DNA of 32,000 nt, taken from assembly GCA_963931495.1 (NCBI GenBank), contig OZ007020.1, positions 810,001-842,000 on the forward strand, read 5' to 3'. Positions 17,071 to 25,222 of this stretch are shown one piece after another (positions within the stretch are counted from its first letter, which is position 1; each line of letters starts with the position of its first letter). Source of the stretch: an uncultured Alphaproteobacteria bacterium (lineage in GTDB: Bacteria > Pseudomonadota > Alphaproteobacteria > Rs-D84). The notes under the pieces were generated by a model. It was given only the letters and a program-made list of their open reading frames with translations, made no database searches and was not told the origin of the DNA. Made by a program: the position numbers and the translations under genes.

Positions 17071-18318
17071 ATGATGAATATTTTTATGATGATTTTGGTT
17101 GCGGTATTTATGGTTGGTTTTTATATGATAAACAGCCCCAGTCAACGCGTCCCCGAACAGGAAACAGAATACGCAATCAGAATGTCTGATTTACGTTCTG
17201 TGGCTGAATGCGCTGTTGCCGCACATAATGCGAAAATTCGCGGCACAAGTTTCCAAGATATATGCATTGACCAAAATTCTGTGGCCAGCCAATCTGTGTG
17301 TATGAATGCCAGTAAACGTATTACTGAATGTGCAATTGTTAGCAATCGCGCCCCAGAATACAGTTATATTATAACAACAACTGCCCCATTACAGGACGGT
17401 GATTATAACAATATGCTGGAAATTCTGGAAACAAATTTCCCAGATGCGGGAACATTTGGAATATTTCTGGATGGGAAAATAATGCTGGGGGGGATATCCG
17501 GGGCGGCAAATGTACCAGATGCAATTATTAATGAACTGGAATTACAAAACGGGCAAATTGTATATATGACCCAATATGAAATACCGACCACCACAAACGT
17601 TATCACCGCAACCACCGCAGCAAATGGCCAAGATGTCGTATGTCCGATTGGCACAATAAAAACATATCGGTTCAGCCGGTGGCAATGCATCCCATTTAAC
17701 ACACAAACAGACTGTGGCGGTGATATGATATGGGATTCTGAATTACAGACATGTGTGGCCGATGAAAATAAAAAGCCACTGTGCGCCGAACAGCAAACCG
17801 CCGTATTGGTTGACAGTGTGTGGGAATGTGTGAACCCATTCCCAGAAAAGGCATGCCCCAGCGGAATGATTGCGCGATTAAATTATTCAACACTGGAATG
17901 GGAATGCGTGGCAGATCCATCTGTTACGAATAATATAAAGAAGTGCGAAACCGTCACCATCAGTCCAACATTCGGCATCGTTGGGACAACCGCTGGGATT
18001 TCGTCGTCGTCATGCACAGACTGTGAACGCGCAATCATTAATCCAGACACGTGCGCAACAACATGTGTACCCGATCCAACAAAGATAACGGACCCGCGAT
18101 GCTATGGCGATACAGATGCATGTTCGGGTCCAAATCGTGCAATTTATTTCGGATTTCCAAACGCGTCATATGCCGCGAATGTCAGTGAAATAAACGGACT
18201 GCGCATCCCGATTGATTCCAGTCATTCGCAAAACAGAAAATTTAATTGCTTGGATTGCGGTGACGGGGAAATTGATTCTGAACAATCCGTACCGCCATAT
18301 ATTGCGATATGCAAGTAA
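17071..18318 (+). CDS. Cys-rich secreted/membrane-anchored protein with internal W-x-C repeats
   Basis: SD AGGGGG. N-terminal hydrophobic helix MMNIFMMILVAVFMVGFYMI. Many Cys overall, with four tandem ~25-aa modules ending RWQCI / LQTCV / VWECV / EWECV (nt 17641-17913). Confidence 0.7.
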   Translation: MMNIFMMILVAVFMVGFYMINSPSQRVPEQETEYAIRMSDLRSVAECAVAAHNAKIRGTSFQDICIDQNSVASQSVCMNASKRITECAIVSNRAPEYSYIITTTAPLQDGDYNNMLEILETNFPDAGTFGIFLDGKIMLGGISGAANVPDAIINELELQNGQIVYMTQYEIPTTTNVITATTAANGQDVVCPIGTIKTYRFSRWQCIPFNTQTDCGGDMIWDSELQTCVADENKKPLCAEQQTAVLVDSVWECVNPFPEKACPSGMIARLNYSTLEWECVADPSVTNNIKKCETVTISPTFGIVGTTAGISSSSCTDCERAIINPDTCATTCVPDPTKITDPRCYGDTDACSGPNRAIYFGFPNASYAANVSEINGLRIPIDSSHSQNRKFNCLDCGDGEIDSEQSVPPYIAICK

Positions 18319-18325
18319 AAAAAGA

Positions 18326-18348
18326 AACGCCCAATTGGGCGTTTTTTA
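18326..18348. terminator. Bidirectional terminator between convergent genes
   Basis: Stem AACGCCC/GGGCGTT with loop AATT, A-run before and T-run after. Confidence 0.65.
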
Positions 18349-18795
18349 TTTGTCATACTGGTTAATTAAATGTTGCAAATTCACCAGTTCTGTTTTTATA
18401 GCATCACGTTCTTGGGCAAAGCGCTGTTTATCGCGGGCATAGTCCGCACATTGCGACGCATCATATACATTCGTATCCATACTGATATCACAATTTTCCA
18501 ATTTATCGTCCAGTTCATCCACACGGTGCGCCAATTCATCGCGCCGCTTTAACAATTGCGACAGGCGCAATTTCGCATCGCTGTAATTTCGTTGTTTCTG
18601 GGCATTGGTCAGAACAGAATCGGCGTGTGATACACGTGATAAATCTTGTTCCAATTCGTTTATATATTCTTGGGATTCTTTGATATCTGCACTGTCATTA
18701 TGGTTACGCGCGGCAAGCGTTTTTGCCACATCCAGTTCTTGTTTTATATCGCTGATTACATTACCCAGTTTTACTGGTTTTATACTGTTTGTCAT
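18346..18795 (-). CDS. Coiled-coil protein of unknown function (149 aa)
   Basis: Heptad-rich, charged sequence (ELEQDLSRV...LRLSQLLKRRDELAHRVDELDDKLE). Only sizeable ORF in the interval. Confidence 0.6.
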   Translation of the reverse strand: MTNSIKPVKLGNVISDIKQELDVAKTLAARNHNDSADIKESQEYINELEQDLSRVSHADSVLTNAQKQRNYSDAKLRLSQLLKRRDELAHRVDELDDKLENCDISMDTNVYDASQCADYARDKQRFAQERDAIKTELVNLQHLINQYDK

Positions 18796-19109: not shown

Positions 19110-19138
19110 TTGTTACAAAAGCCCATATACTATATATT
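19110..19138 (+). promoter_or_regulatory. Candidate nrdD promoter
   Basis: TTGTTA (19110-19115), 17 bp spacer, TATATT (19133-19138), about 60 nt upstream of the nrdD ATG. Confidence 0.4.
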
Positions 19139-19142
19139 GTTA
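19127..19142. promoter_or_regulatory. NrdR-box-like palindrome 1
   Basis: ATACTATATATTGTTA versus my recollection of the NrdR consensus acaCwAtATaTwGtgt: the core CTATATATTG matches at every position. Overlaps the candidate -10. Confidence 0.4.
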
Positions 19143-19159: not shown

Positions 19160-19175
19160 CCACTATATGTTGTAA
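19160..19175. promoter_or_regulatory. NrdR-box-like palindrome 2
   Basis: CCACTATATGTTGTAA, with core CACTATATGTTG close to the same consensus. Starts 33 bp after box 1, i.e. about three helical turns, as is typical for tandem NrdR boxes. Confidence 0.4.
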
Positions 19176-19198: not shown

Positions 19199-21247
19199 AT
19201 GTCAGTACCAGGAAACGATAATAAAATTCAAGTGATTCCAACATTTAACACCAAACTGGTTGCGATTCAAAAACGCACGGGGGAAACAGTTCCATTTGAT
19301 GCCAAAAAGATATTTGATGCGATAAGAAAAGCGGTCGCTGTCACCCATGAAATATCTGATGACCAGACGGCAACAATAACGCAAAATGCCATAAAAAAAC
19401 TGGAACAACGATTTGCTGATAAAACGCCATCTGTGGAAAACGCACAAGAATCTGTGATTGAAGCCTTGATGGATGCCCATGCATACAAAACGGCAGAATC
19501 ATACATTGTATATCGTCAAAAACGCACAGAAATTCGTGATTCGTACGTTGATGCGGTTGATGTCATAGAAGGCTATGTCGGCGGTTCAAATTGGCGTATC
19601 AAGGAAAACGCCAATATCGGTTATTCTATTGGTGGATTAATTTTAAGAACATCTGAACGGGTAACGGCGGAATATTGGTTGAACCTGTACCCACGCGAAG
19701 TTGCCGAAGCGCACAAAAACGCATCTATACACATTCATGATTTGGGATGGTTGACCGGGTATTGCGCCGGGTGGTCACTGCGCGAATTGTTATACGAAGG
19801 TTTTAATGGTGTTCCCGGGTATTTACAATGTGCACCGGCCCGGCATATGGCAACCGCTATTTCACATATGGTTAATTTCTTGGGGACGTTGCAAAATGAA
19901 TTTGCCGGTGCCCAGGCGTTTTCATCGGTTGATACATACTTGGCACCGTATGTCCGCGTTGATAACATGTCGTATGCCGATGTAAAGAACGCGATGCAAA
20001 CGCTGGTATTCAATTGTGCGGTGCCATGTCGGTGGGGAACCCAGACGCCGTTTATCAATTTTACATTTGATTGGACATGTCCCGAAGATTTGAAATCACA
20101 ACATCCATTTATTGGAAAGCAACAAATGGATTTTACATATGGTGATTTACAAACAGAAATGGATATGATTAACAAGGCATTTTTGGAAGTCATGTCCGAA
20201 GGTGACGCCATGGGTCGCCCGTTTACATTCCCAATTCCGACGTACAATATTACCAAAGATTTTCCATGGGAACATCCGAATGTAAAACCACTGTTTGATT
20301 TGGCGGCCAAATATGGTACACCGAATTTTCAAAACTTTTTGAATTCGGATTTGAATCCAACGGATGTTCGTTCAATGTGCTGTCGGTTACGTCTGGACGT
20401 GCGCGAGTTGTTAAAACGCGGTGGTGGATTATTTGGTTCGGCGGAAAAGACTGGATCAATCGGCGTTGTAACCATTAACTTGGCCAGACTGGGGTACATA
20501 CATCGTGGTGACCGTGATGGTTTGTTCCGTGAATTAAAACGCTTGCTGGATTTGGCGCGCGATTCATTGGAAATCAAACGTCGCATAATTACCAAAAATA
20601 TGGAACGCGGACTGTATCCGTTTACACGTCGTTATCTGGGGAATTGGAATCACCATTTTTCAACCATTGGTGTAAATGGCGCGAATGAAATGGTTCGCAA
20701 CTTTACAAATGATAAAGAAAATATTGCGACACCGATGGGCAAAAAACTGGTGTTGGATTTAATGGACTTTATACGTGACAACCTGGTCACGTTCCAGGAA
20801 CAGACGGGTAATTTGTATAATCTGGAAGCAACCCCCGCCGAAGGGTGTTCGTATCGCTTTGCCAAAACAGATGTTAAAAATTTCCCGGACATTATTACGG
20901 CGGGAACGCATGATGCGCCGTACTATACAAATTCAACGCAATTGCCGGTGAATTACACAGACGATCCGTTTGTCGCACTGGAACATCAAGAAGAACTGCA
21001 ACGGAAATACACGGGTGGAACAATGTTGCACCTGTATATGGGTGAACCGGTATCCAGTGGCGAAGCCGCCCAGAAAATCGTGCGCACAATATTTGAAAAT
21101 TACAAAATTCCGTACATGACGTTAACCCCAACGTTTTCAATATGTCCAAAACATGGATATATCCCGGGACGTCATGAATTCTGTCCGAAATGCGACGCAG
21201 AAATTGCCGCAAATCAAAATACAGAATCAGAACCAGTTTCACAATAA
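19199..21247 (+). CDS. nrdD: Anaerobic (class III) ribonucleoside-triphosphate reductase, large polypeptide lacking the glycyl-radical tail
   Basis: N-terminal ATP-cone (VAIQKRTGETVPFDAKKIFDAIRKA). NrdD core motifs (YTNSTQLPV, LQRKYTGGTMLHLYMGE, PYMTLTPTFSICPKHGY). Zn-ribbon CPKH...CPKC at the C-terminus. Ends at TAA 21245-21247 before any RxxGY glycyl-radical motif. Confidence 0.92.
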   Translation: MSVPGNDNKIQVIPTFNTKLVAIQKRTGETVPFDAKKIFDAIRKAVAVTHEISDDQTATITQNAIKKLEQRFADKTPSVENAQESVIEALMDAHAYKTAESYIVYRQKRTEIRDSYVDAVDVIEGYVGGSNWRIKENANIGYSIGGLILRTSERVTAEYWLNLYPREVAEAHKNASIHIHDLGWLTGYCAGWSLRELLYEGFNGVPGYLQCAPARHMATAISHMVNFLGTLQNEFAGAQAFSSVDTYLAPYVRVDNMSYADVKNAMQTLVFNCAVPCRWGTQTPFINFTFDWTCPEDLKSQHPFIGKQQMDFTYGDLQTEMDMINKAFLEVMSEGDAMGRPFTFPIPTYNITKDFPWEHPNVKPLFDLAAKYGTPNFQNFLNSDLNPTDVRSMCCRLRLDVRELLKRGGGLFGSAEKTGSIGVVTINLARLGYIHRGDRDGLFRELKRLLDLARDSLEIKRRIITKNMERGLYPFTRRYLGNWNHHFSTIGVNGANEMVRNFTNDKENIATPMGKKLVLDLMDFIRDNLVTFQEQTGNLYNLEATPAEGCSYRFAKTDVKNFPDIITAGTHDAPYYTNSTQLPVNYTDDPFVALEHQEELQRKYTGGTMLHLYMGEPVSSGEAAQKIVRTIFENYKIPYMTLTPTFSICPKHGYIPGRHEFCPKCDAEIAANQNTESEPVSQ

Positions 21248-21280
21248 AACAAAAAAAAACAGAAAGGGAGGAAAAGTATT

Positions 21281-21469
21281 ATGTCAGCATCAGAAAACAC
21301 ACAAAGAACACCATGTGAAATCTTTTCGCGTTCTATGGGTTTTTACAGACCGGTATCTAATTTTAACATTGGAAAATATTCTGAATTCTGTGAACGCAAG
21401 ACATTTACAGAATCTAATTGTCTGACAACCGGTCAACGTCACAGTGAACTGATGAAAAAGGCGGCATAA
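21281..21469 (+). CDS. Stand-alone NrdD glycyl-radical domain peptide (62 aa)
   Basis: CEIFSRSMGFYRPVSNFNIGKYSEFCERKTF matches the NrdD C-terminal pattern E(V/I)xSRxxG(Y/F)YRPV..(W/F)N.GK..E...R. Candidate radical Gly codon at 21338-21340. Strong SD AGGGAGG (21265-21271) 9 nt upstream of the ATG. Same reading frame as nrdD. Confidence 0.8.
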   Translation: MSASENTQRTPCEIFSRSMGFYRPVSNFNIGKYSEFCERKTFTESNCLTTGQRHSELMKKAA

Positions 21470-21474
21470 TAAAA

Positions 21475-22176
21475 ATGCATGAAATTCAGATTGGTGGTTT
21501 GGTTTCGTTCACAACAATTGATTATCCGGGAAAATTGGCCGCGGTGCTGTTTTTGACGGGTTGTCCATTGCGATGCGCGTATTGTTCAAACACCAATCTG
21601 ATAAATGTTCGTGACGGCGAATATGACCCGGCAAAGGTTCTGGAATGGCTGGGGACACGTGTCGGCAAACTGGAAGCCGTCGTTTTTTCTGGTGGCGAAG
21701 CGTTGATGCAGGGCGACGTCGTAATTGAATATATGCGACGTGTGCGCCAGTTGGGTTTCGCAATCGGATTACATACAAACGGCTTTTATCCAGACACACT
21801 GGCACGCGCGGCAGATACAGTTGATTGGATTGGAATGGATTACAAAACAACCAGAAATAAATATGCGGATTTAGTTGGGCAAAACATCGCACATGACCAT
21901 ATGATTCGCAGTCTGGCCGTGTGGCAATCAACCGGCAAGGATTACGAGGTTCGTATCACATGCGATCCGCGATTTGTTACAAAAATGGATTTAATGGAAA
22001 TTGCAAATGACCTGCATTCACGGGGTGTCAAGAATTTTGCGGTTCAGAAATATATTCCTTATTACGAAGACGAAGCGAATACGACGACACCCGATCAACG
22101 GGCCCAGTTTTTTAATGATGATAATTTGCGCAACACAATAAACAAATTGTTTGATTCTGTCACTTGGCGTGAATAG
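21475..22176 (+). CDS. nrdG: Anaerobic ribonucleotide reductase activating enzyme (radical SAM)
   Basis: GGLVSFTTIDYPGKLAAVLFLTGCPLRCAYCSN carries the CxxxCxxC radical-SAM cluster motif. Starts 5 nt after the preceding stop. Confidence 0.88.
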   Translation: MHEIQIGGLVSFTTIDYPGKLAAVLFLTGCPLRCAYCSNTNLINVRDGEYDPAKVLEWLGTRVGKLEAVVFSGGEALMQGDVVIEYMRRVRQLGFAIGLHTNGFYPDTLARAADTVDWIGMDYKTTRNKYADLVGQNIAHDHMIRSLAVWQSTGKDYEVRITCDPRFVTKMDLMEIANDLHSRGVKNFAVQKYIPYYEDEANTTTPDQRAQFFNDDNLRNTINKLFDSVTWRE

Positions 22177-22203
22177 TTTTTTTCAACACATAAACACGGA
22201 TGC

Positions 22204-22225
22204 CCCCGCCGTGGGAGTGGCGGGG
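22204..22225. terminator. GC-rich hairpin between nrdG and the convergent Cys-rich gene
   Basis: Stem CCCCGCC/GGCGGGG with an 8-nt loop. No clean T-run on either side, so terminator function is uncertain. Confidence 0.3.
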
Positions 22226-22256
22226 ACACGGGGCGTGGAAACACGTAAAAAATAGT

Positions 22257-22700
22257 TTAATTTTGGTAATACGCGGCGGATGTGCATGTCCAACTGCCGG
22301 TGCTGTCACTGCCGGTTAATTGGTTGGCGGGAACATAACATGATGTTATTCCGCCACTGCCGTCTTCGCTGGTCCCGGGAGCGGGGCAAGAATAACACCC
22401 GTTGTTATAGTAGTTACCGGCACCACAACCTGCTTCGCATTCATAATATACACAAGTGGAATTTCCGATTTGATGCGATATGCGTCTGTAACCTGAATTA
22501 CATGTGTCGCACGATGTGTATTTTAACCCGTTGTCACACACATACGATGTTTTTGCGCATGATCCGGCAGGTCCGACACCGTTGTTAACAGGGGTATCAA
22601 ATGACGTGCACATACACCCCACCGGCGTCACCGAAATTGCATTGGCGCAAAATGGAAATAACATCATTGCTGAAAGCAAACCACCGTTTGGATTCGGCAA
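22257..22700 (-). CDS. Small Cys-rich secreted protein (up to 147 aa)
   Basis: Hydrophobic N-terminus (LLSAMMLFPFCANA), then 19 Cys including CDTCNSGYRR...CVYYECEAGCGAGNYYNNGCYSCPAPG. The start is uncertain (TTG 22700 or ATG 22667). Confidence 0.55.
   Translation of the reverse strand: MPNPNGGLLSAMMLFPFCANAISVTPVGCMCTSFDTPVNNGVGPAGSCAKTSYVCDNGLKYTSCDTCNSGYRRISHQIGNSTCVYYECEAGCGAGNYYNNGCYSCPAPGTSEDGSGGITSCYVPANQLTGSDSTGSWTCTSAAYYQN

Positions 22701-22926: not shown

Positions 22927-25222
<2,296 letters not shown>

Follow-up and report, generated by a model that had tools for sequence, protein, structure and literature searches.

Class III (anaerobic, glycyl-radical) ribonucleotide reductases (RNRs) have been characterized in phage T4, E. 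coli, T. maritima, P. copri and S. thermophilus as a single-chain NrdD accompanied by the activase NrdG. The finger-loop cysteine of NrdD becomes a thiyl radical, and the radical glycine lies on the same chain. Surveys of the RNR family treat the radical domain of class III enzymes as belonging to the alpha chain (PMC9669993), and in the single-chain NrdD of P. copri the C-terminal domain is highly mobile and combines a Zn site with a Gly loop that is buried and a tail that lies at the surface, its radical domain vanishing from cryo-electron microscopy maps once dATP binds to the ATP-cone (PMC11226230). Here, we focused on an nrdD locus in a 32,000-nucleotide (nt) stretch from an uncultured Alphaproteobacteria bacterium (GenBank assembly GCA_963931495.1, contig OZ007020.1, positions 810,001 to 842,000 of the forward strand), referred to as the window. 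The locus shares with the characterized systems the ATP-cone, the barrel, the finger-loop cysteine, the Zn-ribbon, the Gly-loop motif and the adjacent activase, but differs from them in that the Gly loop and the C-terminal tail are the product of a separate gene. We consider it very likely that it encodes a conserved class III RNR whose catalytic polypeptide is divided between two gene products.

Two described systems are close to such a division. The first is GrcA/YfiD (and Y06I of phage T4), which, like the protein described here, is a small stand-alone carrier of a radical glycine served by a radical S-adenosylmethionine (SAM) activase. GrcA is a spare for full-length pyruvate formate-lyase (PFL), which has its own radical domain, and acts after cleavage of the latter by oxygen; according to a review of June 2026, formate lyases are the only enzymes with known spare-part proteins, and whether other glycyl radical enzymes have any is not known (PMC13450708). 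The second is the split class II enzyme NrdJa/NrdJb of Pseudomonas aeruginosa, in which the catalytic polypeptide of an RNR is likewise distributed over two genes with a C-terminal module on the second chain (PMC9669993). NrdJa/NrdJb differs in being a class II enzyme that uses adenosylcobalamin, and its second chain carries Zn-finger and IscU-like domains rather than the radical site. Our search of the literature for split, separate or radical-domain-less NrdDs returned no description of a two-gene NrdD, although most subscription journals lay outside this search, so that the absence is not proof.

The genes of the locus are arranged as follows, with coordinates referring to the window.

19199..21247, + strand: nrdD, large chain of 682 amino acids (aa), from the ATG at 19199 to the TAA at 21245-21247 (Pfam, NCBIfam, AlphaFold2 and Foldseek)
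21248..21280, + strand: A-rich intergenic spacer of 33 nt, with an A9 run at 21251-21259 and the Shine-Dalgarno (SD) sequence AGGGAGG at 21265-21271
21281..21469, + strand: gene of the small glycyl-radical subunit, 62 aa, with the Gly20 codon at 21338-21340 (Pfam, NCBIfam and alignments)
21475..22176, + strand: nrdG, radical-SAM activase of 233 aa (TIGR02495 NrdG2, Radical_SAM and Fer4_12)

The AGGGAGG sequence ends 9 nt before the ATG of the small open reading frame (ORF) at 21281, nrdG starts 5 nt past its stop, and the window contains a single copy of the glycyl radical domain (GRD). A preliminary description of this DNA had reported that nrdD ends at its TAA after the Zn-ribbon without a Gly motif, that the missing motif sits in the next ORF, and that the spacer and nrdG are laid out as above. 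All of these coordinates hold: Pfam and NCBIfam agree on the nature of both chains, alignment with fused relatives places the radical glycine at the same codon, and the activase scores above the cut-off for NrdG2 (177.4 bits for TIGR02495; cut-off, 131), with additional Radical_SAM and Fer4_12 matches. In the following, an nrdD that retains the Zn-ribbon and lacks the Gly motif is called GRD-less.

The large chain consists of an allosteric ATP-cone followed by a ten-stranded barrel and the Zn-ribbon and matches positions 1 to 529 of the 562-position NRDD model of Pfam, with scores of 570.7 bits for PF13597 (cut-off, 26.2), 1032.5 bits for NF006126 (cut-off, 548) and 467.7 bits for TIGR02487 (cut-off, 326). 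Its finger loop reads R-S-M-C394-C395-R-L; when fused and split relatives are aligned with it, C395 never varies and C394 shows a conservation of at least 90%. The predicted Zn-ribbon is formed by C649-P-K-H652 and C662-P-K-C665. C649 and C662 never vary across the four alignments, and the same is true of C665 only in the absence of the CPYPH-type relatives described below. The chain ends 17 residues past C665, and no glycyl-radical motif was found on it, either in the window or in any of the 81 loci compared below; every NrdD feature that we tested is present on the large chain except a Gly motif on the same chain. An AlphaFold2 (AF2) model of the large chain alone reached a pLDDT (predicted local distance difference test) of 88 and a pTM (predicted template modeling score) of 0.80, and a Foldseek search with this model matched all solved class III RNRs with TM scores of 0.6 to 0.75. 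The stretches of at least 10 residues with low confidence are the N terminus, the last 7 residues and approximately residues 390 to 412, the last of which corresponds in the model to the finger loop with its Cys-Cys pair, expected to lie opposite the Gly loop. The model also places a helix (residues 663 to 675) after the Zn-ribbon.

The small ORF covers the part of the family models that the large chain lacks, matching only positions 532 to 562 of the NRDD Pfam model and only positions 649 to 682 of 684 in NF006126. The break lies between Zn-ribbon and Gly loop, leaving the former on the chain with the barrel and assigning the latter, together with the C-terminal tail, to the small chain, and it falls inside what the work on the P. 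copri enzyme calls the glycyl radical domain. In Pfam and NCBIfam the small ORF matched NrdD models only, with no hit to PFL or to the Gly_radical family. Its motif SRSMG20FYRP...NIGK contains the radical glycine as residue 20, a column that is invariant in alignments both with fused relatives and with 48 stand-alone relatives. The chain can be divided into a variable leader (residues 1 to 8), an invariant core (C12, R17, G20, R23, P24, N29, G31, K32, E35 and R39) and a C-terminal extension (...RHSELMKKAA). Its fold is poorly determined by single-chain AF2 modeling, which gave a pLDDT of 61 with short strands predicted to flank Gly20 and helices at residues 30 to 40 and 54 to 61; a Foldseek search with this low-confidence model returned nothing informative.

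The small chain resembles GrcA in that its Gly hairpin comes after an N-terminal leader that is disordered or variable. Unlike the partner of GrcA, however, its partner lacks a Gly loop at all loci that we examined, suggesting that the small protein is the sole carrier of the radical. Given its homology to NrdD rather than to PFL, and a partner without a radical domain of its own, the small chain does not belong to the GrcA family.

Several features of the small chains stood out in these comparisons. Cys12 (21314-21316), eight residues ahead of the radical glycine, is shared by all 48 stand-alone small chains aligned, and the equivalent position holds Thr, Ser or Glu in many fused NrdDs; a metal or redox role across the subunit interface is possible for it. 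The C terminus of the fused relative P0140 (...RKLYRPDAERKLLLKKAA) shares the "...L.KKAA" tail of the small chain, suggesting that the C-terminal extension is older than the split and did not arise to compensate for it. Terminal Cys pairs recur on other small chains (...EEKCGCSK in Turicimonas muris, ...DCSCGCK in L125 and ...QSCPSC in L166) and on some GRD-less large chains (...QCKACKG in P0122 and ...SCCNCE in P0128), where they recall the redox-shuttle tails of class I and class II RNRs; the chains of the window and its close relatives have no clear terminal Cys pair.

To gain an idea about the conservation of this arrangement, we scanned for the large chain using one genome per species, which yielded 416 relatives, and dissected the best 80 together with the window (81 loci). 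These 80, with large-chain identities of 85 to 92%, are metagenome-assembled genomes from gut samples (chicken, human and ruminant) assigned to Candidatus Enterousia and allied uncultured Alphaproteobacteria. In all 81 loci, nrdD stops after the Zn-ribbon (77 TAA and 4 TAG), an SD core precedes the small ORF (GGGAGG in 63, GGAGG in 4 and GGAG in 14), a single ATG opens an ORF of 59 to 64 aa, and nrdG begins 2 to 8 nt past its stop. The alignment with close relatives that the preliminary description had proposed as a check therefore shows stop, SD and ATG to be conserved in all 80 related genomes. Pairwise ratios of nonsynonymous to synonymous substitution rates (dN/dS) were ∼0.10 for the small and 0.036 for the large ORF, with dS near saturation, showing that both ORFs are under strong purifying selection.

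These data bear on two explanations that would make the break only apparent. One is that read-through, frameshifting or other recoding yields a single canonical NrdD from both ORFs, a notion that draws on the situation in the window, where the ORFs share a frame (2082 = 3 × 694) and have between them one TAA and a 33-nt spacer that lacks further stops and contains an A9 run. The shared frame had been pointed out in the preliminary description and is real, but it is a coincidence: across the 81 loci, the spacer varies from 21 to 52 nt with 24 different lengths, the small ORF lies in frame 0, +1 or +2 relative to nrdD in 33, 27 and 21 loci, respectively, so that it is out of frame in 48, and a further in-frame stop occurs in 13 of the 33 spacers that preserve the frame. 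Read-through is thus not a conserved mechanism, and since each of the 81 loci also has its own SD and ATG, and the small gene elsewhere overlaps nrdD, follows nrdG or lies 3 to 5 kb upstream, we regard recoding as extremely improbable. The other explanation, a recent nonsense mutation in an incipient pseudogene or an error of sequencing or assembly, can appeal to a bare stop inside a normally single gene and to nothing more. Both had been listed as options beforehand, and both fail on the same grounds, namely, the same architecture in 80 other species-level genomes, the conserved SD in the spacer, the purifying selection on both ORFs, and the occurrence of the identical 62-aa protein on 180 contigs, with 230 stand-alone clusters (90% clustering) related to it, most of those listed being 57 to 64 aa long. 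The chance of such a lesion or artifact is negligible.

Some of the 81 loci and of their viral counterparts deserve comment. Residues 21 and 22 of the small chain (21341-21346) give G-F-Y in the window and in L002, L006 and L007, and G-F-I in the other 77 loci. Locus L020 (CAVGNU010000006.1) is titled as a Bacteroides fragilis bin, yet carries an Enterousia-type nrdD operon of 90% identity, which is probably a binning or labelling error. Locus L095 (IMGVR_UViG_3300029906_000277) holds an Enterousia-type operon (91% identity) on a 23.6-kb contig that is catalogued as viral, which may reflect misclassification or a prophage-borne copy.

The arrangement extends well past this genome and is widespread in other bacteria and on phage-like contigs. 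A search with the large chain against 1.84 billion cluster representatives (50% identity) gave 5,919 matches, of which we classified the best 150. These are 41 to 65% identical to the large chain and often intein-bearing; 73 end after the Zn-ribbon with no Gly motif, including all of the 8 best matches, and 59 to 62 are fused. We then inspected the neighborhoods of ten GRD-less representatives from outside Enterousia, taken from different blocks of the tree, and found a separate Gly ORF of 46 to 67 aa in the fetched DNA of eight of them. It follows nrdD directly on three bacterial-type contigs (L083, L089 and L092), follows it directly or one small gene further on in three phage-like contigs (L086, L093 and L094), is set apart from nrdD by a DUF7487 gene and the activase in L081, and lies 2.9 kb upstream in L084. 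A profile built from 16 diverse small chains matched at least 7,999 database proteins of 8,000 scored, the best 120 of which are all 49 to 92 aa long. Among cultured bacteria, Turicimonas muris (Sutterellaceae) encodes a GRD-less NrdD of 676 aa, followed by the gene of a 57-aa protein and the activase; the 57-aa protein, one of the profile matches, is annotated as "anaerobic ribonucleoside-triphosphate reductase." Besides T. muris, a second bacterial lineage has an nrdD-small gene-activase operon, and in that lineage the small gene overlaps the end of nrdD. Elsewhere, small genes have been missed (L084) or labelled as "hypothetical protein" or "anaerobic ribonucleoside-triphosphate reductase." In the distant split locus L092, an nrdR gene lies directly upstream.

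IMG/VR yielded 396 viral relatives; among the best 80, NrdD is fused in 58 and GRD-less in 22, and 20 of these 22 loci have a separate Gly ORF within their flanks. The nearest isolates in INPHARED (phiCTP1, Oceanotoga phage and MT835493) look fused, with no split case among the nearest isolated phages. This distribution speaks to the idea that the small protein is a GrcA/YfiD-like spare for another, full-length NrdD after oxygen damage, the large chain not being its normal partner. GrcA sets a precedent for a stand-alone radical domain (PMC13450708), but every stand-alone Gly ORF whose neighborhood we examined sits by a GRD-less nrdD and never by a fused one, adjoining it in most loci and lying 1 to 5 kb off in a few. 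No viral locus with a fused NrdD had a Gly ORF in addition, and the window itself has the single GRD copy mentioned above, so that a spare-part role seems very improbable.

The relatives also provide hints about the origin of the split. In comparisons of the Gly-loop core, the small chain of the window groups with those of T. muris and with phage small chains of the "VMGY" type (63 to 66% identity), its best match among fused domains reaching 57%, and the small chains that go with CPYPH-type large chains are closest to the neighboring fused clade (80%). These identities suggest at least two independent fissions. A neighbor-joining tree of large-chain residues 420 to 665 distributes the GRD-less forms over several blocks and is too weak for counting fissions. 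The CPYPH-type subgroup (P0138, P0147, P0149, P0154, P0165, P0173 and P0179, the last corresponding to L083) has C-P-Y-P-H or C-P-Y-E-H instead of C-x-x-C in the second half of the Zn-ribbon, which is followed by TEE(D/E)L.R(F/Y)G, and its small chains resemble the neighboring fused clade.

Inteins are unusually common in the nearest relatives (P0121 to P0270, with P0179 reaching 1,879 aa and P0173 reaching 1,753 aa); these and L083, L084, L089, L092 and L093 align in 2 to 5 matched stretches and have Intein_splicing or LAGLIDADG Pfam matches. Such a wealth of inteins would fit a scenario in which a split intein, or some other form of ligation, links the two polypeptides posttranslationally into one. 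Neither chain has an intein match in Pfam, however; the large-chain tail spans 17 residues with a protein length that varies by ∼12 residues over the 81 loci, and the small-chain leader is variable and only ∼8 to 11 aa long, leaving no room for the N- and C-terminal halves of an intein. We therefore give trans-splicing a minute probability.

In one phage lineage, an endonuclease ORF lies in the small gene itself: in L084 (∼250-1143) and L098, an HNH (NUMOD4/HNH_3) endonuclease ORF interrupts it two codons before the Gly codon (...KCEIWTR / VMGYHRP...); the same small gene is intact in L164 (5143-5295) and L165. In L084, the surroundings of the interrupted small gene gave no group I intron match in Rfam. 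A parallel for the interruptions in L084/L098 and for L081 is the class Ia NrdA of Aeromonas phage Aeh1, a phage RNR gene that is reportedly split by the mobile homing endonuclease gene mobE and whose enzyme is said to be still active; it differs in being a class I enzyme, split within the barrel, and known from one phage rather than from a broad family.

Given these observations, the two-chain enzyme could be real and its division nevertheless of no benefit, a neutral "genes in pieces" scar that homing endonucleases or inteins left behind in ancestral phages. This possibility concerns why the split exists and not what the enzyme is, and we rate its chance as slightly short of even. It is in keeping with the many split loci on phage-like contigs, with the HNH ORF inside a small gene that is intact elsewhere, with L081, whose parts are separated by the DUF7487 gene and nrdG, and with at least two fissions as suggested by the GRD-core identities. 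Conversely, the split persists under purifying selection in reduced genomes of less than 1 Mb (PMC12306168), it recurs in cultured bacteria, and the stand-alone family has invariant features of its own, such as Cys12 in 48 of 48 chains. None of these points separates a neutral from a beneficial split sharply.

Taken together, the comparative data show a two-gene structure that is conserved, kept under purifying selection and widely recurrent, and it is on these data that the two-gene enzyme reading rests; they support the genuine two-polypeptide NrdD that the preliminary description had preferred. What we say about docking, activation and stoichiometry, and about possible benefits of dividing the chain, is inferred. 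The small chain would dock noncovalently, inserting the β-turn with Gly20 into the barrel beside Cys394/Cys395, and NrdG with SAM would take the hydrogen from the α-carbon of Gly20. The glycyl radical would then generate the thiyl radical for reduction of nucleoside triphosphates, as in single-chain NrdD. That an untethered chain could serve as the Gly loop is plausible in light of the mobility of the P. copri domain (PMC11226230). The reductant is probably of the thioredoxin or glutaredoxin type, as suggested by the adjacent Cys pair and by relatives with fused or neighboring redoxin genes: the fused relative P0131 has a C-terminal glutaredoxin domain (residues 722 to 770) above the Pfam cut-off, P0155 (1059-1119), also fused, has a sub-threshold thioredoxin-like match, and a glutaredoxin or Pyr_redox_2 gene lies beside nrdD in L087 (2280-2504) and L092 (5360-6280).

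Some points weigh against this reading. No Gly ORF was found in L090 and L091 with E values up to 50, in a partial contig for L090 and a complete one of 11.8 kb for L091, and one or two of the 22 GRD-less viral loci had none in their flanks, so that the co-occurrence of the Gly ORF is high but incomplete. Furthermore, both products and their complex are predictions from the genes, and the assignment of the reductant leans on what we take to be the properties of the NrdD subtypes.

As to what the division might achieve, it is possible that cleavage of the radical site by oxygen requires replacement of only a 7-kDa piece, and we hypothesize that the small chain is a detachable or replaceable module. 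In a more far-reaching version, Gly-loop proteins of 46 to 82 aa would be free, exchangeable radical cofactor subunits that NrdG activates off the barrel before they dock. We put this forward tentatively, as it is rather less probable than its opposite.

Upstream and downstream of the three genes, the following elements were found.

19127..19142, + strand: NrdR-box-like palindrome 1, ATACTATATATTGTTA, 72 nt 5' of nrdD (pattern scan of 81 loci)
19160..19175, + strand: NrdR-box-like palindrome 2, CCACTATATGTTGTAA, 39 nt 5' of nrdD (pattern scan of 81 loci)
22196..22229, no strand assigned: G+C-rich hairpin 3' of nrdG, terminator-like on the minus strand (consensus scan)

The pattern scan, for which we used what we take to be the NrdR-box consensus, found at least one NrdR-like box in 81 of 81 loci and two boxes in 59, spaced by 33 nt in 58 of these 59. 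A consensus scan detected no terminator-like site in either of the intergenic regions that flank the small ORF; the number of such sites it returned equals the expectation from shuffled sequences, making the evidence for the downstream hairpin weak. The three genes form one operon behind NrdR-like boxes, in which the small gene is preceded by a strong SD of its own. Of the neighboring ORFs, those at 17071-18318 (+), 18346-18795 (−) and 22257-22700 (−) have no Pfam match, two of them being Cys-rich, and the ORF at 22927-25041 (−) resembles an NAD-dependent DNA ligase as judged by eye only.

The split genes are already in the databases, named but unremarked. The large genes pass for complete NrdDs or for truncated pseudogenes, and surveys that apply length filters or presuppose a Gly motif at the C terminus will misjudge them. 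It has long been asked how the activase reaches the buried radical glycine and how far the radical domain moves, and a natural, untethered Gly loop of 6 to 9 kDa makes it testable whether activation happens on the free or the bound chain, whether chains exchange, and whether the cost of oxygen is limited to a small peptide. Such experiments are feasible, since T. muris, which has the split arrangement, can be cultured (it comes from the mouse gut and is part of defined consortia). As judged from the genes, the small chain would add a second enzyme class beside PFL to those with a stand-alone radical-domain protein, one that would be obligatory rather than a spare. If the subunit does prove to be an exchangeable cofactor, gut bacteria and phages would share a previously undescribed, obligatory GrcA-like system for the synthesis of DNA precursors.

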